Below, one piece after another: positions 1,959 to 29,904 of a DNA stretch of 29,904 bases; the first letter of the stretch is position 1, and each line of letters opens with the position of its first letter. Origin of the DNA: Planctomycetota bacterium (GTDB lineage Bacteria > Planctomycetota > SKW154); assembly GCA_026418755.1 (NCBI GenBank), contig JAOAAR010000001.1:1-29904 (forward strand). The letters run 5' to 3'. The position numbers and the translations under genes are program-made. The notes below the pieces were generated by a model. The model searched no databases. It had not been told where the DNA came from and saw only the letters and a list, made by a program, of their open reading frames with translations.

Positions 1959-3695
1959 ATGACTACGGAGTTAAAGGTCGGATTCCTGTTTTTCGTAGGG
2001 CTTGCGGCTCTTTTTGTCTTCACTCTTGCAATCTCAGATGTGCCTTTCCTGAAGAAAGGATACGAGTTCGAAATAGTGTTTCCGGACGCCGCCGGCATCG
2101 AGAAAGGTGACAAAGTCCTCCTTTCAGGTGTCACAGTCGGAGACATTTCTGACCTCTCCTTCACGGAGGACGGAGAAGTTCTCATGACCTGCCACATATC
2201 CAACGAGCAGACAAGAATTCCTGCCGATTCTCGGTTTATGATAAAACCCTTTTCCCTCCTCGGAGGTCTCTCCGTCTACATCTTCCCAGGCAAGTCCCCT
2301 CAAACGGTAAAAGAGGTAAGAAGAGTGAGAGGAGAACCTCCACCTGACTTGGTAACTTCTCTGTCGAAAGCAGGGGATACACTTTCCGACAGTTTCGCAT
2401 CCCTGGAGAAGAAGTTGAGCGATGTGCTGGCGGAAGTGAAGAAAGCGGTAGGCATGTTCACGGAGAACGACGGCACCGTTCAGAGACTTCTGAAGGAGAG
2501 GAAACTCTATGATGATATTGCACAGGTAGCGGAAGATTTGAAGAGATTGAGTGGAGATGTAAGAGAAGGGAAAGGAACGATAGGGAAACTGTTTGCAGAT
2601 GATTCCCTTTACAACGACTTAAAAGGAGCGGTAACGGAGATAAAGACAACTGTCAAAGAGGCAAGTGATGTTTTAGGGAAAGCAAAGGAGAGCATAGAGC
2701 AGGGGAAAGGATTGTTAGGAAAGATTTTTACGGACGAAGAAGTGTATGAGAATCTGAAGAAAGCCTCCCGCGATATAGAGGCGCTCACATCGAAGTTGCG
2801 AACATCGACGGAAACAGATAGTCTGCTCAATCAGTTACTCAAGCCGGGCGGCGGCAGAATCTTTGACGACCTTTCCGGTGCTTTTGCGGATGTGAAAGAC
2901 TTATTTTCGCAGATAAAGGAAGGAAAAGGGCTTCTTCATACATTGCTCTATGACGAAAATGTTTCAAAAGATGTAAAGGAGGCGGTCGCATCTGTGAAGA
3001 ATGTGGTGAAGAGACTGGACGAGTCAAAAGAAGGCTCCCTCTGGAAACTGATAACTGAGCCAGAACTTTATGAGAAGGCGAAGAAAACTTTAGATGATGC
3101 ATCTGAAGCGCTTGCACCGATTGCACGCCTTACTGTCTTCGTCGGACTTGAATCCTCATATTACGATTACCAGAAGGAGACAGCATCAAGCATATATTTG
3201 AAGATATTCCCTCGCAGGAACAGGTATTTTCATCTGGGTGTGACTTTCTTCTATTTTGACGAGACAAGCCCTGTCGGATTCGATTTGATGGAGCAGGAGG
3301 CAGGCTCGTATGTGAACAAGGTGACCTTTCTAATGGCGCAGATTTTCCGCTTTAACGACAAGGACAAAGAGCCCAAAAATGACTGGGCGGTAGTGTTTCG
3401 CGCAGGTTTGCTAGAAGGCACTGGCGGAGGCGGCATTGATTTCGAATTTTTTGAAAGGAGACTGCTTTTTACTCTTGAAGGACGCGCAGCACACACCGAC
3501 CCAAACAGATTCTACGAACCTGTCGAGCCCTTCCTTCTGCGCTTCAGAGCATCATACCTTATCTGGGGCTTTTTAAGAGTTTATGTTGGTGTGAACAACA
3601 TCTTGGACAAAACAGAGTTGTCTGTTGGAATATCAGTTGAATGGGAAGACAAAGACATAAAGTCCATAGTCGGAATCGCAGGGGCGATGCAATAA
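1959..3695 (+). CDS. mlaD: Long MlaD/MCE protein: N-terminal TM anchor, MCE domain, helical repeats, C-terminal beta-barrel-like domain
   Basis: N-terminal TM (ELKVGFLFFVGLAALFVFTL), MCE motif FPDAAGIEKGDKVLLSGVTVG, about six G[TL]xGKLxxDxxLY-type repeats, and about 190 C-terminal residues of amphipathic beta-strands. Confidence 0.9.
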   Translation: MTTELKVGFLFFVGLAALFVFTLAISDVPFLKKGYEFEIVFPDAAGIEKGDKVLLSGVTVGDISDLSFTEDGEVLMTCHISNEQTRIPADSRFMIKPFSLLGGLSVYIFPGKSPQTVKEVRRVRGEPPPDLVTSLSKAGDTLSDSFASLEKKLSDVLAEVKKAVGMFTENDGTVQRLLKERKLYDDIAQVAEDLKRLSGDVREGKGTIGKLFADDSLYNDLKGAVTEIKTTVKEASDVLGKAKESIEQGKGLLGKIFTDEEVYENLKKASRDIEALTSKLRTSTETDSLLNQLLKPGGGRIFDDLSGAFADVKDLFSQIKEGKGLLHTLLYDENVSKDVKEAVASVKNVVKRLDESKEGSLWKLITEPELYEKAKKTLDDASEALAPIARLTVFVGLESSYYDYQKETASSIYLKIFPRRNRYFHLGVTFFYFDETSPVGFDLMEQEAGSYVNKVTFLMAQIFRFNDKDKEPKNDWAVVFRAGLLEGTGGGGIDFEFFERRLLFTLEGRAAHTDPNRFYEPVEPFLLRFRASYLIWGFLRVYVGVNNILDKTELSVGISVEWEDKDIKSIVGIAGAMQ

Positions 3696-4627
3696 AAATC
3701 TGCATAGTCGGACCGGGAGCGATAGGAAGGCTGTTTGCTTCCCTGTTCTCCAAAAGCGGAGCAGATGTGGTTCTTGCCGACCATCGTCCTGAAAGAGCAG
3801 AAAGTCTTACCAGAAATGGTTTGATTCTTCGCGGCTTACAAGAGATTAAGACTCAGGTTCCAGTCACCATGGCTCCTTCCGATTTTGCGCCTTTTGACCT
3901 CGTGTTCATCTGCGTGAAATCCTATTCGACAAAAGAGGTGGCAAAACAGATAGTATCTTGGGCATCCAATTCCACACTTGTAACTCTACAAAATGGTATG
4001 GGCAACATAGAAGCACTTCTTGAGTATTTCCCTCCTGAGCAAATTATAGGAGGAGTAACCGGCTGCGGCGCCAACATCCCCCCCGACTCCCCTGAAACTG
4101 TAATCTTCGCCGGCTGCGGAGAGACCGTCATCGGACAAGTCGGAACAAAAAGTCTAAACGGCAGAAACAAAGAACTCGAAAGAGTGGAATCCCTTTTTCG
4201 CAAGGCAGGGCTGCCTGTGAGAAAGACTGAGAATCTGCAAAGCGAATTGTGGGGGAAACTGTTAATTAATGCAGCAATCAACCCTCTCTGCGCACTCCTC
4301 CGGATTCGCAACGGCTTCTTACCAAAGATTCCTTCTCTTTGGGAACTTGCCCGCCTGGTATTGAAAGAAGCCATAAGCGTAGCGAATGCTGAAGGAGTAG
4401 TCCTTCCTTACCCTGACGCCGCAGAGAAGGTGAAAGCGGTCTGCGAAGCAACCGCACAGAACCGCTGCTCAACACTGCAGGATGTAGAAAAAGGAAAGCG
4501 CACAGAAATAGACTCAATCAACGGCTATATCTGTCGAATCGGAGAAAAACACGGAATTCCCACTCCATACAACCTCACTTTGAATCTACTGCTCGGCTCC
4601 CAAACAGCCAATGCTCCCGGATACTGA
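3692..4627 (+). CDS. panE: 2-dehydropantoate 2-reductase (ketopantoate reductase, PanE/ApbA family)
   Basis: KICIVGPGAIG Rossmann motif, FICVKSY, LQNGMG, LWGKLLINAAINPL, STLQDVEKGKRTEIDSING. Start placed at ATA 3692 (see findings); the alternative is ATG 3641. Confidence 0.9.
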   Translation: MKICIVGPGAIGRLFASLFSKSGADVVLADHRPERAESLTRNGLILRGLQEIKTQVPVTMAPSDFAPFDLVFICVKSYSTKEVAKQIVSWASNSTLVTLQNGMGNIEALLEYFPPEQIIGGVTGCGANIPPDSPETVIFAGCGETVIGQVGTKSLNGRNKELERVESLFRKAGLPVRKTENLQSELWGKLLINAAINPLCALLRIRNGFLPKIPSLWELARLVLKEAISVANAEGVVLPYPDAAEKVKAVCEATAQNRCSTLQDVEKGKRTEIDSINGYICRIGEKHGIPTPYNLTLNLLLGSQTANAPGY

Positions 4628-4666
4628 TAACACTGGTGTATAAAAAAAATAGTAGGAGGTGATAAG

Positions 4667-5277
4667 ATGTGGAGAAAAGTAGCACTATGGGTAGTGATTT
4701 CTCTCCTTACTGCCAACTGGATGGTTGCCCAAGAGGAGAAAAAAAAGAGCGCCATGTGAGAGAAACTCTACTGACGCAGGTTGCCGCAGGCTGGATACCA
4801 CGATCCTTCGTGGTTGCTCCCGACCTAAGACATGTAGCATATGTAGTAAGAGCAACAGACGGAAAACTGTATGTGGTCGTGGATGGAAAGGAAGGGAAAA
4901 GATACGATGACCTTGCTTTTCTCACTTTCAGCCCTGATGGCAAACGGTTCGCATATGCCGCGAAAGAGGGGGATAAATGGCTCGTCGTAATTGATGGCAA
5001 AGAAGAGAAAAAATACAACGGCATCGGAGAGGGAACCATCGCTTTCAGCCCCAATAGCGACACAGTTGCTTACGCAGCCATAACAGACACAGGATGGACA
5101 ATGGTCGTCAACGGAAATGAAGGAGAAAAATACGATGTCATCGTCACCATCGGACCCAAAAAGATAGTCTTCGACCCCACAGAGAACTTAAGCCATCTCT
5201 CCGGAACAGGTTGCAGTTTTCGTTATCTCGCCGCAAAAGGGAGCAGCGTTTACCTCGTAGAGGAGAGATTAAAATAG
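4667..5277 (+). CDS. Secreted PD40/WD40-like beta-propeller repeat protein, split by a -1 frameshift at an A8 tract (4739-4746)
   Basis: AGGAGGT (4654-4660) then ATG 4667 encodes a signal peptide, MWRKVALWVVISLLTANWMVA-QEE, and this frame stops at 4757-4759. The repeat body (FSPDGKRFAYAAKEGDKWLVVIDG, about 4 copies) lies in the -1 frame to 5277. Confidence 0.8.
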
Positions 5278-5343
5278 AGATAGAGACAAAAAAACTGCAA
5301 AAAAGAAAGAGAACAGGAAGCAAATTGCACGAAACTGTAAAGT

Positions 5344-5445
5344 CTACTCCTTCCTCTTATCTCTGTAACTCTGAAGCCCTAAAATAGTTGGGAGAGACGA
5401 CAGTCGCTGTTCTCTTTCCACAATTTCCTTTGGTGTTACAGCCAT
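5344..5445 (-). pseudogene. 33-aa ORF resembling the N-terminus of an HDOD-domain protein (probable truncated remnant)
   Basis: Translates as MAVTPKEIVEREQRLSSLPTILGLQSYRDKRKE. The first 22 aa resemble the 'TPxELV...L(P/S)SLP' start of HDOD proteins (recognised from memory, not by search). Confidence 0.3.
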
Positions 5446-5725
5446 TTCTCTTTAACATACAGCGAAGATTTGATTCTTTTGCCCTACTTGACTGAAATGA
5501 TAAGAAAGGTAAGAAGTTTTGATGAAGGATTTTTCCAACGGCTTTATTCAAGAGATTTCCGCGCTATTCTGTTTAAATAAACCACCCCCCGCCCAAAAAC
5601 TCCTCTCCTGTTTGAGGAGGAAAAAGCCATCCGAAACGCCAAGAGCAGCGCCATTTTTTGAGAAAAGAAGCGAAAAAGACTTGAAATTCTGATTCTATGT
5701 GTTAAATAAGTATTAGTCGTAGTGA

Positions 5726-5849
5726 GGCGATAAAGCCATCGAAGAAGACCGTAATGAGGACGGCGAAGTCCCCTTAGAAGATAAGAGAATCTTGCTTAAT
5801 CCTTATTCTATCTGCGAGATGTATCGTGTTGTTTTATTAACCATCTCGC
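5726..5849 (+). promoter_or_regulatory. Candidate structured 5' leader of the methyltransferase-ligase gene
   Basis: A series of short inverted repeats: 5726-5737, 5749-5763 versus 5758-5771, 5775-5810, and a perfect 8-bp stem at 5814-5821/5842-5849. No match to a riboswitch class I can recall. Confidence 0.25.
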
Positions 5850-5920
5850 CCATCATTGTATTTCTTCGAGTCCCATTCCGCCGCTTTCTTAAACAAGAAT
5901 TCCTGTAGGGAGGATATATT

Positions 5921-7933
5921 ATGAAGGAGGAGATGGCGAAAAGCAGCAAACCGTCGAAACGGAGCAAATCGATTCTTACTGTAACGAAATCGTTCGGACC
6001 CGTGCCGAACTTGGAAGAGTATGTGAAACCTGACTGGTGGCGCTATATTTTCGATGCGACTTATCTTAAGACTGACGGTGATGTGGTTGACGACGCAAAC
6101 ATAACAAAAAAAGAGGTAGACACATTCTCTGCAATCCTTAAGATGGATACCTCCGACAAGATTCTGGACCTCTGTTGTGGACAGGGAAGGCATTCGTTAG
6201 AACTCGCAAGACGGGGCTTTCAGAATGTAGAGGGGCTTGACCGCTCACACTATCTTATTCAGAAAGCGAAGGCTCAAGCAAAAAAAGAGAACTTGAATGT
6301 GAAGTTTAGGGAAGGCGACGCCCGCAAACTTCCGTATCCGCCCGACTCTTTCGATGTAGTCCTGATTCTGGGAAACAGTTTTGGCTATTTCGACACCGTC
6401 AGAGACGATTTGAGAGTCTTGAAGGAAGTCAAAAGAGTCTTAAAACCTTGGGGGAAACTTCTTATTGACGCCGCGGACGGAGAATACCTGAGGCAGAATT
6501 ATAAACCCCGCTCGTGGGAATGGATTGATAAAAAACATTTTGTATGCAGAGAGCGTTCCCTCTCTTTCGACAGGCAGTGTCTTATATCAAGAGAGGTTGT
6601 CGTTCAGGTAGAAAAAGGAGTGATTGTTGACCAGTTCTATTCCGAGAGGCTCTATACGAGAGAAACCCTTATGGAACTGTTGAAGACGGTAGGCTTCGAC
6701 GACATCGTTTCCCACAGTGTCATTTCTCCTGACTCGCAGCGCAATCAAGACCTCGGAATGATGGAACAGCGGGTCATAATGACGGCTGTAGCTAGAAAAG
6801 AATGGACGCCTGTAAAAAAGAAGGAAGACATAAAAGAGGTTGTCGTTCTGTTAGGAGACCCTTCAAAACCTGACCCCCTCAAACCTATGGGCGTATTCGA
6901 CGACGATGACTTCTACACCATAGACCAGTTGAAAGGAGCTTTAAGAGAATTAAAGGGTTACAACTTCACCTATCTGAACAACCACAGCACAATGCTGCAA
7001 GACCTCATGAAACTGAAAGGCAAGATTGACTACGCCTTTAATCTTTGTGACGAAGGATATGACAACAATCCCCGACAGGAACTTCATATCCCCTCAATCC
7101 TTGAAATGTTGGGAATCAATTACACAGGAGCAGGGCCTCAATGTCTCGCCTTCTGCTACGACAAGTCGCTGGTAAGAGGCATCGCTAAAGAGATGGGGAT
7201 TCCTGTAGCAGATGGTTTCTTCATCAAGCCTGAAGACACAACTTTTGAACTACCATTTGGGTTTCCTGTCATCGCAAAACCGAACTACGGAGACTCGAGT
7301 TTTGGAATCACCCAGCGATGTGTCGCAAATAGTGTGGAAGAACTCACCCTCGCCATTGCAGAGATAAGGGGAAAGTTCGGATACGAGAAACCTATTCTGG
7401 TTGAGGAGTTTTTGGTCGGGAAGGACATGAGCCTCGGAATAATCGGTAACCCGCCAGAATCTTACACCCTGCTGCCCATAATAGAAGAAGATTATTCCTG
7501 CCTCCCCGAAGGTTTGCCTCACATCTGCGGTTACGAAGCAAAATGGCTGCCAGACTCCCCTTACTGGAACATCGTCTCTAAACCTGCTGAACTGCCTGAA
7601 AGTACCAAAAGATTCATTGAAGAGTGCAGTTTAAAACTGTTTGAAAGGCTTGGAGCCAGAGACTACTGCCGCTTCGACTGGAGACTCGACGGTGAAGGGG
7701 TTCCGCATCTCCTCGAAGTGAATCCAAATCCAGGCTGGTGCTGGGACGGACACCTGGCGAAGATGGCAAAAGCGGCAGGAATGGAATACCACGAGATGTT
7801 AGAGGCTATTCTGAAAGCAGCAGAACAGCGATTCGCTCTTCTTCAGGAGAGTGGAAAAGAAAACGGAAAAGGAAACGGAAAAGAAGAAGAAACTTCACAC
7901 AAGATACCCACAGCCATACGCAGCGAAACATAA
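5921..7933 (+). CDS. Fusion of a class I SAM-dependent methyltransferase and a D-Ala-D-Ala ligase-like ATP-grasp domain
   Basis: N-terminal half: ILDLCCGQGRHS (motif I), EGDARKLP, LGNSFGYF. C-terminal half: GINYTG, DKSLV, VIAKPNYGDSSFGI, EEFLVG, YEAKW, RFDWR, LEVNPNPG. GGGAGG RBS. Confidence 0.9.
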   Translation: MKEEMAKSSKPSKRSKSILTVTKSFGPVPNLEEYVKPDWWRYIFDATYLKTDGDVVDDANITKKEVDTFSAILKMDTSDKILDLCCGQGRHSLELARRGFQNVEGLDRSHYLIQKAKAQAKKENLNVKFREGDARKLPYPPDSFDVVLILGNSFGYFDTVRDDLRVLKEVKRVLKPWGKLLIDAADGEYLRQNYKPRSWEWIDKKHFVCRERSLSFDRQCLISREVVVQVEKGVIVDQFYSERLYTRETLMELLKTVGFDDIVSHSVISPDSQRNQDLGMMEQRVIMTAVARKEWTPVKKKEDIKEVVVLLGDPSKPDPLKPMGVFDDDDFYTIDQLKGALRELKGYNFTYLNNHSTMLQDLMKLKGKIDYAFNLCDEGYDNNPRQELHIPSILEMLGINYTGAGPQCLAFCYDKSLVRGIAKEMGIPVADGFFIKPEDTTFELPFGFPVIAKPNYGDSSFGITQRCVANSVEELTLAIAEIRGKFGYEKPILVEEFLVGKDMSLGIIGNPPESYTLLPIIEEDYSCLPEGLPHICGYEAKWLPDSPYWNIVSKPAELPESTKRFIEECSLKLFERLGARDYCRFDWRLDGEGVPHLLEVNPNPGWCWDGHLAKMAKAAGMEYHEMLEAILKAAEQRFALLQESGKENGKGNGKEEETSHKIPTAIRSET

Positions 7934-10771: not shown

Positions 10772-11524
10772 ATGCGTGCTATTGTGTTAGCGGTAGTCGG
10801 AGGAGCAGTTGCTGTTTTATCTGCGCTGCTCTACTCCCGATTTAGCGTAATTGAAAGGAATGAGTCGAAAGCGGTTTCAAGTGCCGACAAAGAACACCTT
10901 GAAAGAATCGAGAAGACTTTAAACGAAATCCAGCGACGGCTTCAGCGGTTAGAGACGCTCTCAGCCACTCTGGAGGATGCGGTTCTTCGACCGCCTGACT
11001 TCTCTCCGCCAAAGAGCAGTACATCCTCTTCTTCTCTCAGCACACCGTCCCCTTCTTCGTCGAGTAACCCGCCCGAGAAGAAAGCGGTTCCGGCGACTGC
11101 AGAGGCGTCTGAAACCGAGCGTCTGCGCCAACTCATTCGCGAAGAGTTAAAGCGCTCCAAAGAGGAAGAGATGAAAAGATGGCGTGAGCAGAGCAGAATA
11201 GAACAACCGGAAGAATGGGAAAAACAAGAGTTTGGTGAGTATGCCTGGTATGTCCGCCAGAGAGGAAAAGAACTGAATTTGACAGATGCCCAAAAACGGC
11301 AATATTACGCCATAATAAAGGACTACTACGACAGGTCTCGGACCTTGTGGGAGGAACTGCGAAAGAACAATCCTAATAGCGACTGGCGCAAGTTGGGCGA
11401 ACTCTATCAGGAGCGCTCGAGCGAACTACTCAAAACTACGAGAGAACTCGTCCTTCGTATCCTCGATTCTGAACAGCAGAAAAAATATCGCGAAATGTTT
11501 GAAGACAATGAATGGTATCGTTAA
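10772..11524 (+). CDS. Membrane-anchored or exported hypothetical protein: coiled coil, Ser/Pro linker, LTxxQ (Spy/CpxP-like) helical C-terminus
   Basis: Hydrophobic N-terminus, heptad-like segment LERIEKTLNEIQRRLQRLE, linker SSTSSSSLSTPSPSSSS, motifs LNLTDAQ and LDSEQQKKY. GGGAGG RBS. Confidence 0.75.
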   Translation: MRAIVLAVVGGAVAVLSALLYSRFSVIERNESKAVSSADKEHLERIEKTLNEIQRRLQRLETLSATLEDAVLRPPDFSPPKSSTSSSSLSTPSPSSSSNPPEKKAVPATAEASETERLRQLIREELKRSKEEEMKRWREQSRIEQPEEWEKQEFGEYAWYVRQRGKELNLTDAQKRQYYAIIKDYYDRSRTLWEELRKNNPNSDWRKLGELYQERSSELLKTTRELVLRILDSEQQKKYREMFEDNEWYR

Positions 11525-22441: not shown

Positions 22442-24514
22442 TCATTCTTCTCTTGAGCGCATAGTAAGCGGCTCGATTCTGCGCTCCCCATAGAACTCAA
22501 ACGGCGACAGATAAAAAGTGAACCGCCGCTCATCGTTCACATTATCGTACTCGCAGCCGAACTCGATTATCCAGCAATGGAGTCTGTGTGTCAAAGAGAA
22601 AGAGATTTTAGAGTACTCTTTTTTGATAATGTCGTATTGATAGAGAAGAGAAGGCGCCCATCTCTTTTCATAAGACGCACCCAAACGGAAAGTGAGAAGA
22701 TGACGCATACCGCGCAGGTAGTAATCCTCTACCGAGAAATCCCATTTCTTGTGGTTAACGGCAACCCGCAACCGGCGCGTCAAAAGCGAAAGAGAGTCAC
22801 CAGAAAAATTAAAACTGGCGAGAAGAGCGAGAAAAGTAAAAGGCAAAGCGTTCACATCGAGGTATAATCTGTCCCTCCCGTTTCTTGCGTCAATACGGTA
22901 AGCAGAGCGGAAATCCAGACAGCGTCTGCTCTCAACTTGCAGAAGATTTACGATGGCAAGTTCTACATACTGCTCTTTTTCCACCTGTTCCAGTTCGTCA
23001 TAGTACGGCACCTCGTCAGGTTCGAGCGTGAGAGCAAAGCGGTGAAAGTATGAGAGTGACGGCAGAATCGAGTGGAGTGTTCTGTTGTTGTAGCAGCGCC
23101 ATAGAAGCGTAGAGAAAATGAATCCTGCCGACGATTCTGCCCTCGAAACCTCTTCATCGCTGTAGAAAGCGCGAGAGTACGAAGTGAACGAGGACGCAAG
23201 ATATGGGTTTAAGCGGATGAAAGAGATGTCCGTCGGCGCGCTTACTTTTGTAGAGAGAAAAACTCTGCGGCATTCGTTGTCAGCAAATCCTACGGTTTCT
23301 GCGTAGTTACGGCGAATGTATTCAACACGTGCTGTCGCATCCAGAAGAAAATTTCCAAAAAGCGATAAACCGATAACCTCGGTGTTGAAAGATGGAACGT
23401 ACTCTGTCTGCGTTCTAAAAGGCTCCGCCCTCGCCAAAATGAGTGCCTCTGAGAAAATAGAACCGCTCCACCAGTAGCGGAGGAATCCGTAACTCTCCTG
23501 AGGCTCATCCTCCCTGTAGATTCGCTCAAAGTAGTCTCTGAGCACCAATGAATCCGATGCCCGCCTCCAGCGGAAGCAAAAAAGCAGACTCCTTTGAGGA
23601 GAAGCCCAATCACAGTCTAACGCCGTGCGCCAGCGGCTTCGCTCTTCAAAAGCAAATCTTTCTCCCTCATCGTGAATATAAAATCCTGAAAGACGGACAG
23701 AGGGAATATTCTTTTCTCTGTAGCGAACTTCAAGCCCTGTCCCGTCTCCGCGCAAGGAATAGTGCTCATAGCGGATATCCGAAGTGATAGTCCTGCTCTG
23801 CCAGATGCGGATAGCGGTGGAGAAAATCGAACCGAAATCAGAACGGCTGCCAAAATAAAGTCTTCTCAATGGCATCCACCATTCCTCTTCTATATAAAAC
23901 GAGGGCAGAGGAAAAGAGATAAAACTTGCAAAGAAATGGTTGCCACTCGCCTTGAATGTACCGTCCCGTTCAAGTTCCACTCTTGCCGAACGGAACCCCC
24001 AATGAGGCTCGTCAAACGAGCAGGTCGAAATTATACAGTTTTCTGCTACAAATCTTTTCAGATTGTTCTCCGCATAGATCCGCTCGGCTTTCAGAAAAAT
24101 CTCTTCCACTCTTTCAGGCAAGTCTCGGCTCAGAACCCTCCTCTCTTCTTTCATCTCCTTCACTCTTAAGCGAAGTCTTGCGGAAATGAAAATCCCTCCT
24201 TGTTGCGAAAAATCATAGAATGCGGAGTCGGCTTCGAGCGTGACGGTTCCATCCGTAAGAAATACAGAGCCTTCAGCGCGGATACTCATCATGTCGTTTG
24301 AACTGTCAAGAGAAATAAGAGCAGAATCGCAAAGGAACCTGAGTTTGGCACGTTCAACTTCAACAGAACCGTAAAGAATTATACGCCTCTCCTTCAGTTC
24401 TATCCGTTTTCTCAAAGCACGCACTCTGAAAGGAACCTCTTCCTCCCCAACAAGCGGCATAACAGCAAATAGCAGCCAGAGACCAACGAATATTTTGAAA
24501 GAGAACTCTCGCAA
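22442..24514 (-). CDS. lptD: LptD/OstA-like outer-membrane LPS assembly protein
   Basis: Signal peptide, N-terminal beta-jellyroll (LYGSVEV, AEGSVFL), ISTCSFDEPHW motif, long aromatic-rich beta-strand C-terminus with LHCW near the end. Confidence 0.75.
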   Translation of the reverse strand: MREFSFKIFVGLWLLFAVMPLVGEEEVPFRVRALRKRIELKERRIILYGSVEVERAKLRFLCDSALISLDSSNDMMSIRAEGSVFLTDGTVTLEADSAFYDFSQQGGIFISARLRLRVKEMKEERRVLSRDLPERVEEIFLKAERIYAENNLKRFVAENCIISTCSFDEPHWGFRSARVELERDGTFKASGNHFFASFISFPLPSFYIEEEWWMPLRRLYFGSRSDFGSIFSTAIRIWQSRTITSDIRYEHYSLRGDGTGLEVRYREKNIPSVRLSGFYIHDEGERFAFEERSRWRTALDCDWASPQRSLLFCFRWRRASDSLVLRDYFERIYREDEPQESYGFLRYWWSGSIFSEALILARAEPFRTQTEYVPSFNTEVIGLSLFGNFLLDATARVEYIRRNYAETVGFADNECRRVFLSTKVSAPTDISFIRLNPYLASSFTSYSRAFYSDEEVSRAESSAGFIFSTLLWRCYNNRTLHSILPSLSYFHRFALTLEPDEVPYYDELEQVEKEQYVELAIVNLLQVESRRCLDFRSAYRIDARNGRDRLYLDVNALPFTFLALLASFNFSGDSLSLLTRRLRVAVNHKKWDFSVEDYYLRGMRHLLTFRLGASYEKRWAPSLLYQYDIIKKEYSKISFSLTHRLHCWIIEFGCEYDNVNDERRFTFYLSPFEFYGERRIEPLTMRSREE

Positions 24515-27996: not shown

Positions 27997-29106
27997 ATGA
28001 GGTTAAAGAGAGAGTCTAACTTGAAAGGAGGACGACCGCTGGTTAAAATGAAAAAGAGGCTTGTGAGAGGAACAAGTATGGAAACCTTCGAAGGAAAACC
28101 CGTCATTGGCGAGATTCAAGATGTGACTCGATTCATCCTCGTCAGAAAGATAGCAGAAGGTGGAATGGGAACGATTTACGAAGCGCTTCAATTAGGGGCG
28201 GAGGGTTTTCGCAAGACTGTGGCAATCAAGATGATTCGGGCAGAATTCGGAGACGACAAGCAATTCGCCGAGATGTTCATAGGAGAGGCTAAACTGGTAG
28301 CAGATTTAGTCCATCAAAACATCGTCCAAATCTATCAATTGGGAAAAATAGGCAAACAGTATTATATGGCAATGGAGTATATATTTGGAGTAGACCTTGC
28401 AACTTTTATAGAGAGGCACAGAGAATTGAAAAAGCCGATACCTGTTGAAATAGCCACATTCATAATATCCCGTGTCTGCCGTGCGCTTCGTTATGCGCAC
28501 GAAAAGCGCGACAGAAATGGCAACCTCCTAGGAATCGTCCATCGGGATATAAGTCCTGCCAACATAATGTTGGCATACGAAGGAGAAGTGCGAGTAACCG
28601 ATTTTGGAATCGCAAAGGCGCGGAATTTAAAGCATGCACGAGAAGGTGAAGTCTTGATGGGAAAGTTACAATATATGTCACCTGAACAGGCACAGTTTAA
28701 AGAAACAGACGGTCGCTCCGACTTGTTCTCCACAGGCGTAGTTCTATACGAGATGCTGGCTGCTCGCCAACTGTGGCAGCCTTCCAACACGATGAAGATG
28801 CTCCACGACATCTGCTACCAGCCTGTTGAGCCAATCAGAAAATACAGAAGCGATGTTCCTGAGGCTGTCTCGAAAATCATAGAGCGGGCGCTCCAGAAAG
28901 ACCGCGAACTTCGCTATCAGAGAGCTCAAGAGATGCTCTTTGACCTCGAATACTATATGTATCACGACCGTTACGGACCTACGACGAGCACATTAGAGCA
29001 TTATCTTGCGAAGATATTCCCAGACAAGGTCACATATCAGCCGATAGACAAGACTGAAGAGCGAAGAATGCCGCAAATCTTCGGACAGAAGGAGGGCAAA
29101 TTATGA
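27997..29106 (+). CDS. Soluble Hanks-type Ser/Thr protein kinase
   Basis: IAEGGMGTIY, VAIK, HRDISPANIML, DFGIAK, YMSPE, DLFSTGVVLYEML. No TM. The likely start is ATG 28078 (GAGGA 7 nt upstream). Confidence 0.95.
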   Translation: MRLKRESNLKGGRPLVKMKKRLVRGTSMETFEGKPVIGEIQDVTRFILVRKIAEGGMGTIYEALQLGAEGFRKTVAIKMIRAEFGDDKQFAEMFIGEAKLVADLVHQNIVQIYQLGKIGKQYYMAMEYIFGVDLATFIERHRELKKPIPVEIATFIISRVCRALRYAHEKRDRNGNLLGIVHRDISPANIMLAYEGEVRVTDFGIAKARNLKHAREGEVLMGKLQYMSPEQAQFKETDGRSDLFSTGVVLYEMLAARQLWQPSNTMKMLHDICYQPVEPIRKYRSDVPEAVSKIIERALQKDRELRYQRAQEMLFDLEYYMYHDRYGPTTSTLEHYLAKIFPDKVTYQPIDKTEERRMPQIFGQKEGKL

Positions 29107-29904
29107 GGCTTGTTTGCATACTTATAACAACTCTCTTTTTCTCGGTATGGATAGCCGCTCAGCAGAGTGAGGACGACTTACAAACGAACTCCTCCGTTTC
29201 GCTGAACGCATTCTCTGACCCCGAAGGAATCATCGACGAGGTGCGTTCCCGTCTGAAACAGCAAAAATTCAGAGAGGGTATCGAACTTCTCCAGATACTT
29301 TTGGAGAAAACCCTCACCGAAGCATCCTTTGCCGGCAAACTCTACCATAGAAGCGAAAATGTGTATATACCGCTCGACGATTTCTGTGTTCAACTTCTTA
29401 GAGAGATGCCACTCGGAGGATACGACACCTACATCACTTTATACGGAGCCACAGCAGAGAGAAGCCTCGAACAAGCGCTCTCCTCCGGCAACACGGAAGG
29501 AATCGAGACGGTGAGCCGACTTTACCCCTTGACCGAAGCAGGACAAAAAGCGCTTCTGTATCTGGCAGACACCGCCCTTGAATCAGGAGACGGTGCTAAA
29601 GCGCTTTACTACTTGAATCGTAGCATTCAGACAACAGGCAGACGAAGTACACTCACCTCTCTTAAAATGGCAGCAGCGATGTTAATTCAGACACTTAAAG
29701 AGAGTGCAAAAGAGATTCTTCTCTCATTGGATGACAAAACCCTGAGTAAAGAAGAAGCCGCCATCAAAGCGAAACTTCTCGAACAGACTAAAGGATCTAC
29801 TACCACTTCCTCTTCCCGCAAACAAGATATTTATAACTCCTTCTATGACTCATCTTCATCGATTGCGATACCGCAAGATTGGAGAACAGTCCTGTTTCGA
29901 GGCT
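29103..29904 (+). CDS. 5' part of a large secreted protein (TPR-like helical N-terminus, probably leading into a PQQ/BamB-like propeller); runs off the window
   Basis: ATG 29103 (ATGA overlap with the kinase). My translation: MRLVCILITTLFFSVWIAA-QQSEDD...KFREGIELLQILLE...YPLTEAGQKALLYLADTALESGD...QDWRTVLFRG, with no stop to the window end. Confidence 0.75.
   Translation, partial: MRLVCILITTLFFSVWIAAQQSEDDLQTNSSVSLNAFSDPEGIIDEVRSRLKQQKFREGIELLQILLEKTLTEASFAGKLYHRSENVYIPLDDFCVQLLREMPLGGYDTYITLYGATAERSLEQALSSGNTEGIETVSRLYPLTEAGQKALLYLADTALESGDGAKALYYLNRSIQTTGRRSTLTSLKMAAAMLIQTLKESAKEILLSLDDKTLSKEEAAIKAKLLEQTKGSTTTSSSRKQDIYNSFYDSSSSIAIPQDWRTVLFRG

Follow-up and report, generated by a model that had tools for sequence, protein, structure and literature searches.

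The window analyzed here is a stretch of 29,904 nucleotides (nt) from a Planctomycetota bacterium (assembly GCA_026418755.1, contig JAOAAR010000001.1, positions 1 to 29,904 of the forward strand), and this report concerns a small gene within it, on the + strand, in which a predicted signal peptide and a repeat domain lie in different reading frames on either side of a run of eight A residues (A8). The window belongs to a draft genome, G000 (2.09 Mb, 420 contigs, 84% complete, 57 runs of N), in which its contig is C114. The small gene sits between panE (3641-4627) and a gene for a methyltransferase/ATP-grasp fusion protein (5921-7933), and has the following features.

4654..4660, + strand: AGGAGGT, a strong Shine-Dalgarno sequence, spaced 7 nt from ATG 4667 and 9 nt from GTG 4669
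4667..4729, + strand: predicted signal peptide MWRKVALWVVISLLTANWMVA, 21 amino acids (aa), zero frame, assigned from the sequence, its relatives and a hydrophobic core of 2.48
4667..4759, + strand: zero-frame open reading frame (ORF) of 30 codons, i.e., the signal peptide plus QEEKKKSAM, ending at TGA 4757-4759
4669..4671, + strand: GTG in the -1 frame, the start of the 202-aa ORF of gene callers, without a signal peptide
4739..4746, + strand: A8 tract, coding for Lys-Lys-(Lys), site of the frame break; the downstream part is in the -1 frame
4741..4747, + strand: heptamer A_AAA_AAG in the X_XXY_YYZ phase, by direct reading
4747..5277, + strand: gene body, -1 frame, 176 codons plus TAG, with the linker ERHVRETLLTQV..W.P.SF, about four PD40-type blades and a C-terminal cap, ..YLVEERLK
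4749..4777, + strand: weak irregular hairpin, -8.1 kcal/mol, z -1.36, with 23 of 200 shuffles as good
4643..4650, + strand: second A8 run, within the 26 nt that separate the panE stop codon (4625-4627) from the ribosome-binding site

The locus and its frame break

The zero frame that opens at ATG 4667 encodes MWRKVALWVVISLLTANWMVAQEEKKKSAM and then reaches TGA 4757-4759, its codons across the tract being GAG GAG AAA AAA AAG AGC; the -1 frame is open from 4666 to TAG 5275-5277. Joining the two frames into a protein of about 203 aa requires one additional A, the loss of two A residues, or a -1 slip, i.e., the in-frame tract lengths are A9 or A6, and the sequenced genotype is A8. An earlier note on this DNA had described the AGGAGGT sequence, ATG 4667, the A8 tract, TGA 4757-4759 and the -1 join to about 203 aa, all of which were verified on re-reading the sequence. 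It had also pointed to a recurring A-Q(E/D/Q) cleavage pattern, and three neighboring proteins do begin with signal peptides, ending in SA-QE, FA-QD and AA-QQ.

The N-terminus encoded in the zero frame has the layout M-WRK / VALWVVISLLTA / NWMVA|Q, i.e., a basic n-region, a hydrophobic h-region and a small residue at position -1, and is predicted to be a Sec signal peptide. Cleavage before the Q is predicted by likeness to relatives that read ..VASA-QEK, ..VAWA-QEK and ..IVSS-QEV. The largest 12-residue Kyte-Doolittle mean was 2.48 for this N-terminus, 2.27-3.55 for six intact relatives, and -0.13 for the -1 frame read from GTG 4669.

The body in the -1 frame carries the repeat motif FSPDGKR.AY..(G)..VVVDGKEGK.YD, and Pfam PD40 (PF07676) matched with 22.5 bits, just above the cut-off of 20.9 (E 1.1e-4, with a single repeat scored); most of the homologues described below have precomputed PF07676 matches. 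An AlphaFold2 model of the body, built from a 46-sequence alignment, was all-beta, with a mean predicted local distance difference test score (pLDDT) of 93.4 and a predicted template-modeling score (pTM) of 0.87. A Foldseek search of this model against the PDB gave 151 matches at E <= 0.001 (best E 3e-5), headed by propeller fragments (6r60, 6r5y), WD40 proteins and TolB (4r40, 7mx5, 4pwz). The template-modeling (TM) scores of these matches were low (0.31-0.52), because the query has about four blades and solved propellers have five to eight. The modeled structure thus supports a propeller-like domain of the PD40/TolB type, as the earlier note had read the -1 frame. With PD40/TolB propellers (PF07676) the domain shares the repeat motif, in the form FSPDGKR.AY...G...VVVDGKEGK.YD, and a PD40 score above the cut-off; it differs from them in having only about four blades in 176 residues, in missing the N-terminal domain of TolB, and in having an N-terminal linker and a C-terminal cap (..IYLVEERIK) of its own, both common to a family of small secreted proteins. 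The product is probably an exported blade-repeat protein, with a predicted periplasmic or surface location.

A search with the 176-residue body over 5.8 billion proteins gave 80 matches at E <= 1e-5 among 182 candidates. Apart from the window's own ORF, no match in this collection exceeded 47% identity, the best non-self identity overall being 47-48%. In five of the nine homologues that were fetched (P0004, P0005, P0010, P0022 and P0031), signal peptide, linker and repeats all lie in one frame: a signal peptide or lipobox-like signal is followed by QEKS, QEES, EEKT or QTKS, then by a linker of the form (N/E)R.V(S/T)E.LI...W...(S/T)(F/L).VSPD, and then by the repeats. The other four comprise P0047, with a different signal, and P0002, P0009 and P0042, which start without one. 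An intact paralogue in the same genome, on contig C234, reads MVMFRTLFTILVVLISLAGIVSS-QEVSDREVSEKLVAQV... In the window, the zero frame yields the signal peptide and QEEKKK, and the -1 frame continues with ERHVRETLLTQVAAGWIPRSFVVAPD.., which aligns with the linker of the relatives. When the sequence was read through with an X at the break, all six relatives aligned colinearly with it both before and after that point, and 13-17 of the 35-38 aligned columns behind the break were identities.

Because the five homologues and the paralogue carry all parts in one frame and align colinearly with the two joined frames, signal peptide and repeat domain are parts of a single gene, which is broken at the A8 tract; their division over two frames is no coincidence. 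The earlier claim that the two are joined only across this tract is borne out by these alignments. The intact gene would encode a Sec-exported protein of about 203 aa, in which the signal peptide and a short QE.. linker precede about four PD40/TolB-type blades and a conserved C-terminal cap.

A different view of the locus is that there is no break, and that the gene is simply the 202-aa ORF from GTG 4669, encoding a cytoplasmic repeat protein. The -1 frame is indeed open from 4666, GTG 4669 lies 9 nt behind the same Shine-Dalgarno sequence, and a public collection contains this seemingly whole ORF as entry P0001. However, the first 26 residues of that ORF lack a hydrophobic core and have no counterpart in the relatives, whereas the zero frame encodes a signal peptide like those of the family. 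ATG 4667 is, moreover, the better spaced of the two start codons, and by our estimate chance alone leaves 26 codons open in about a quarter of cases. We regard this view as highly improbable; the break is hidden from gene callers because GTG 4669 uses the same ribosome-binding site and the -1 frame is open. The significance of the locus is mainly a point of annotation, in that the public 202-aa protein conceals a frameshift and has the wrong N-terminus, the true product being a small secreted four-blade protein of a PD40-type family that has no described function.

In related genomes, members of this family are mostly about 440-580 aa long with many repeats, and 14 of 41 genomes, counting G000, contained matches. 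A DNA search of G000 revealed no second copy of the gene, the only match being 58 nt of repeat in C234, and a search of metagenome contigs, among which records of G000 itself may be lacking, for the exact flanks of the tract with a free gap of 4-14 found 0 other copies. Using the 670-aa protein encoded downstream as a guide to an orthologous locus, matches at E <= 1e-20 were present in 0 of two genomes of the same family and in one of two of the same order (partial, 33-34% identity).

Tract length and other interrupted genes

The earlier note had named a homopolymer sequencing error as the main alternative to a real break; the true tract would then be in frame, most simply A9, and the gene would be that of an ordinary secreted protein. 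One public run (X1), from a hot-springs metagenome, was available as Logan contigs and may be the source of the assembly. An X1 contig covers 4661-5400 with 0 differences and no gap, at a word depth of 6.4, and retains A8, so that two assemblies agree on the tract length, although probably from the same reads. Since Logan contigs drop rare variants, they would not show minor tract lengths. The 19-nt Nextera mosaic-end adaptor occurs 80 times in G000, mostly in the terminal 19-40 bases of a contig (C2:1, C11:16150 and C400:3045 are examples), and these remnants indicate that the assembly was made from Illumina reads. Errors of this chemistry at homopolymers are random, and a wrong majority consensus at A8 is uncommon. 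(Adaptor remnants were also seen beside N gaps, where they create false peptide ends such as ..EMCIRDR..; the window's contig, C114, has none.) Among the 130 homopolymers of at least 8 bases in G000, 81 lie inside long intact frames, as do 300 of the 686 runs of at least 7 bases, mid-gene. The assembly is therefore mostly accurate at homopolymers; breaks are rare, yet they exist.

Frame breaks elsewhere in G000 were sought in three ways. An ORF-based frame-switch screen (219 rows) was too permissive and was dropped, while a stricter screen of ORF pairs gave 44 candidates, of which only one, on contig C166, was checked with Pfam, the remaining pairs being judged by eye as neighboring genes or noise. 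A third screen, which examined runs of at least 7 bases for N-termini resembling signal peptides whose frame differs from that of a long ORF behind them, gave nine rows, two of which were judged real by eye.

On the minus strand of C166 (locus L029), a gene for an ATP-binding cassette (ABC) ATPase is split at a G9 run, 728-736 (followed by T7 and G6), into ORFs 703-1011 and 2-736, with positions 3-40 of Pfam ABC_tran (Walker A) in one frame and positions 44-136 in the -1 frame. This break, the only clear one found in mid-gene, is likely to be an assembly error or a pseudogene.

On contig C117 (locus L030), a lipoprotein signal peptide begins at ATG 3249 (MQKKFITLLVCTVATFSFASC; frame 3249-3389), and a repeat domain, ..NPSPTQGATDVPV..YYWRVDS.., follows in the +1 frame (3268-3963), with domains of about 95 aa of the type YYWR.DS.N..G.TKG..W.FTT. 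Both frames are open across A7 3360-3366 and A6 3371-3376; the contig has a 10-N gap at 3681-3690. An intact paralogue on C162 (L037, 155-1351) reads MRKAILLFVCLFLLSSC-GPVGPVSVAATLFGLGGKKKKHTVESLPAKASNPRP.. and has ..GGKKKKHT.. at the tract. Residues 2-43 of this paralogue are matched by the peptide of the C117 signal frame (E 1e-4), and the other frame aligns strongly with it from the Lys run onward (E 1e-37). Relatives of the C117 domain (in 7 of 21 genomes, G000 included) matched only from the domain onward, and it is the C162 paralogue that places the break. This break therefore likewise lies in an A-tract coding for Lys, about 18 codons downstream of the signal peptide, but here the tract has one base in excess.

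When broken and intact tracts were counted, the ratio was 2:24 behind signal-peptide-like N-termini and 1:300 mid-gene (2/26 versus 1/301; Fisher p = 0.017), a result that is only a hint, the test being post hoc, with crude classes assigned partly by eye, a signal-peptide filter that lets through some cytoplasmic proteins, and a screen whose scope did not extend to N-terminal breaks in non-exported proteins. Because broken tracts prefer positions behind signal peptides, a random assembly error is disfavored; mutations tolerated in dispensable genes that have paralogues fit this distribution. The C117 gene and the window gene would fit either plain decay in a small genome (2.1 Mb, versus 3.5-4.3 Mb in the same order) or a switch.

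These results bear on the possibility of error in both directions. Homopolymers are the commonest sites of indel errors, the depth is about 6-8, and the draft is fragmented, with 420 contigs, 57 N runs and adaptor remnants. The G9 break in C166 looks like an error, and C166 and the window gene both need one additional base. Counts of A/T runs fall from 102 to 5 between lengths 8 and 9, and the window gene is otherwise perfect. By contrast, the C117 gene needs one base fewer, so that there is no uniform under-calling, and the breaks cluster in exported genes with paralogues, unlike random errors. Together with the agreement of the two assemblies, the Illumina remnants and the many intact runs, this leaves an error at the window tract a rather unlikely explanation, i.e., the suspicion raised in the earlier note is weakened without being removed.

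The C117 gene also bears on the ON/OFF switching that the earlier note had proposed, which it makes somewhat likelier than before. In a contingency locus under selected phase variation, ON cells (A9 or A6) and OFF cells (A8) would coexist, and the same would apply to the C117 lipoprotein. The tract lies where the mature part of an exported protein begins, a classic place for such a switch, and an out-of-frame 5' homopolymer here yields a truncated product; the gene body is intact, and the second exported protein is broken at A7 in the opposite sense. Further A8 tracts that are in frame lie within the first 25-50 codons of other exported or lipoprotein genes, directly behind the signal peptide or lipobox (C5:6584-6591, C5:3381-3388, C7:4668-4675 and C260:692-699). 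The enrichment of broken tracts behind signal peptides points the same way, with the reservations given above. Phase-variable genes for surface proteins, such as opa of Neisseria and the outer-membrane protein genes of Helicobacter, have a slippery repeat within or immediately after the stretch coding for the signal peptide. The window gene resembles them in the position of its tract, with which the mature part of an exported protein opens, in yielding only a short stub when the tract is out of frame, and in having paralogues; a second locus of G000 is, in addition, in the same state.

Set against those systems, however, the window tract is short, G000 is depleted of long tracts, and the organism is a free-living hot-spring bacterium without a known need for antigenic switching. 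Eight A residues make a rather short tract for switching at a high rate. The Logan contigs, from which rare variants are dropped, gave no sign of length heterogeneity, and two OFF loci would also be expected from plain decay of redundant paralogues. Genome-wide, A7 and A8 are depleted within genes in all three phases relative to codon shuffles (z -7.9 to -10.0), being 2- to 9-fold rarer than expected (for A8, 8-19 per phase versus 70-102), and the 2.09 Mb hold 102 A/T runs of length 8 and only five of length 9; genomes that use contingency tracts show the opposite. Because this avoidance does not depend on frame, the hazard posed by A-tracts would be indel mutation or slippage by RNA polymerase rather than by the ribosome; PMC4066793 offers the same explanations for Escherichia coli.

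On balance, we consider phase variation a possible, if somewhat unlikely, account of the locus. A broader version is just as tentative, namely that this uncultured hot-spring bacterium with a small genome may use short Lys-coding poly-A tracts immediately after signal peptides as reversible switches for exported proteins that have paralogues, with at least two loci OFF in opposite senses (the window gene at A8 and the C117 lipoprotein gene at A7), several ON, and, at high temperature, a constant leak by polymerase slippage on these tracts. If sequencing reads showed length heterogeneity at both the window tract and C117, phase variation of exported proteins would extend to a free-living thermophile; contingency loci are mostly known from host-associated bacteria.

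The proposed dnaX-type recoding

The earlier note had also suggested that the gene is recoded. Full-length protein would then be made from A8 by a programmed -1 ribosomal shift, as in dnaX of E. coli, or by addition of an A by RNA polymerase, as in dnaX of Thermus thermophilus, with the 30-aa stub as the default product. Several features would suit this: the heptamer has the phase that such a shift requires, and a zero-frame stop codon follows 10 nt later; the gene body is intact; a sequence AGGAG (4734-4738) lies just upstream; and the organism comes from a hot spring, a thermophile being the known user of slippage on A/T runs (PMC5009743, a review). The window gene shares with E. coli dnaX the identical heptamer, in the identical phase, and a close zero-frame stop.

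In other respects the two cases differ. According to PMC5009743, A_AAA_AAG is shift-prone in E. coli because the sole tRNA-Lys, with anticodon UUU, pairs weakly with AAG. The 43 tRNAs found by ARAGORN in G000 include tRNA-Lys(ttt), encoded on C11, and tRNA-Lys(ctt), encoded on C44, so that a tRNA-Lys(CUU) is present beside tRNA-Lys(UUU). A stimulatory stem-loop or pseudoknot of the dnaX type is expected after a spacer of about 5-8 nt, and in dnaX itself a strong stem-loop lies about 6 nt downstream. The hairpin at 4749-4777 begins only 1-2 nt past the heptamer and is weak and indistinguishable from shuffled sequence; the fold of the 93 nt downstream was likewise unremarkable (z -1.42, 14 of 200 shuffles as good). 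A search against Rfam gave nothing relevant, only a chance match to U6atac at E 9.7. The upstream Shine-Dalgarno sequence of dnaX lies about 10 nt before the site (a spacing rule for which we found no passage in PMC5009743), whereas AGGAG 4734-4738 is 2-3 nt before the heptamer.

Nor is the heptamer rare in this genome. In the shifty phase it occurs 136 times in 1404 long ORFs, versus 163 +/- 12 in codon shuffles (17% below, z -2.2), and in a non-shifty phase 76 times versus 99 expected (z -2.6). Because that phase is depleted as much, selection does not appear to treat the motif as dangerous here; in E. coli, in-frame A_AAA_AAG is markedly under-represented, as stated in PMC4066793. The site and the two-frame arrangement are not conserved among the relatives either. 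The earlier note had proposed comparing tract length in homologues, and none of the homologues and paralogues has the site, the five fetched relatives of the same architecture and the C234 paralogue being single-frame. Finally, E. coli dnaX has two functional products and is conserved, whereas the zero-frame product of the window gene is a bare signal-peptide stub without a conceivable function.

As regards slippage by RNA polymerase, T. thermophilus dnaX and the poly(A) "rescue" of frameshifted genes in the endosymbionts Buchnera and Blochmannia are similar in having an A/T tract in a coding region, where polymerase can add bases and some product is made (PMC5009743). The same source reports that Thermus has two tRNA-Lys, which was proposed as the reason why polymerase slippage serves there instead; G000 resembles it both in this and in its hot-spring source. 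Efficient slippage is, however, described in that review for runs of 9 A or T, the general expectation being at least 9 or a special context, and the window tract has 8; long A-tracts are, in addition, avoided rather than used in G000.

Programmed recoding in either form is therefore improbable, and it is this branch of the earlier proposal that finds no support, switching being the part that may still hold. The heptamer is best seen as a by-product of the A8 tract that carries no programmed signal, since A8 followed by G in the zero frame yields A_AAA_AAG automatically. More generally, a perfect in-phase dnaX heptamer is not evidence of recoding when it lies in a homopolymer and a tRNA-Lys(CUU) is present.

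Interpretation and neighboring genes

The interpretation we prefer, with a probability of roughly 0.5, is that a real one-base change in tract length has left the gene OFF, either as a young pseudogene or as an OFF allele that could revert, any leak being small and unprogrammed. A slipped-strand indel at a mutable, Lys-coding homopolymer behind the cleavage site would have produced A8 in place of A9 or A6. Translation from ATG 4667 would then end at TGA 4757, after a signal-peptide stub of 30 residues. Some leak by slippage of polymerase or ribosome on A8 may occur, and would be expected to be small. In this interpretation, A8 would be real in the DNA and would undergo no programmed decoding. 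Because the body is intact, with 176 codons without a stop, the high pLDDT already given, and a C-terminal cap, the break would be recent or reversible. Phase variation overlaps with this interpretation and goes beyond it in requiring a switch that is frequent, reversible and put to use.

Several points weigh against an OFF allele. The A8 tract lacks independent confirmation, the second assembly being probably from the same reads, and the depth is low. With no orthologue for comparison (the best identity being 47-48%), conservation or loss of the tract cannot be judged. The G9 break in C166 is in a gene with no obvious reason to vary, and because that gene breaks at a homopolymer, some assembly errors or general decay must exist. 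Moreover, an intact body and a perfect in-phase heptamer would be equally expected of a recoded gene.

Upstream of the gene, the second A8 run may be part of a promoter or 5' leader. It lies 89 nt upstream of the A8 tract at 4739-4746; in G000, A/T runs of 8 occur about once in 20 kb. Between the Logan contigs, which end at 4648 and restart at 4661, is a hole (4649-4660) that proves nothing. A scan of 4400-6000 found 0 sigma-70-like promoters, versus 1.7 expected, and no terminator on the + strand behind the gene.

The flanking panE (3641-4627, + strand) has Pfam ApbA and ApbA_C domains. The downstream gene (5921-7933, + strand) encodes a 670-aa fusion of an S-adenosylmethionine-dependent methyltransferase (residues ~75-185) and a D-Ala-D-Ala-ligase-type ATP-grasp domain (~423-631); one genome of the same order has two tandem ATP-grasp-only genes with 33-34% identity to its product. 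Farther upstream, 1959-3695 (+ strand) encodes an MlaD-domain protein of 578 aa with a long, coiled, low-complexity extension and a C-terminal part without a family match. This gene follows mlaE (383-1165) and an ABC ATPase gene (1172-1927), and it runs 55 nt into the beginning of the panE ORF. Three ORFs had no Pfam match at E <= 1e-5, i.e., 22442-24514 (- strand, 690 aa), 10772-11524 (+ strand, 250 aa) and 29103-29903 (+ strand, >267 aa), the last of which begins with a signal peptide. G000 also has a tRNA-SeC (anticodon tca), and the organism probably uses selenocysteine.

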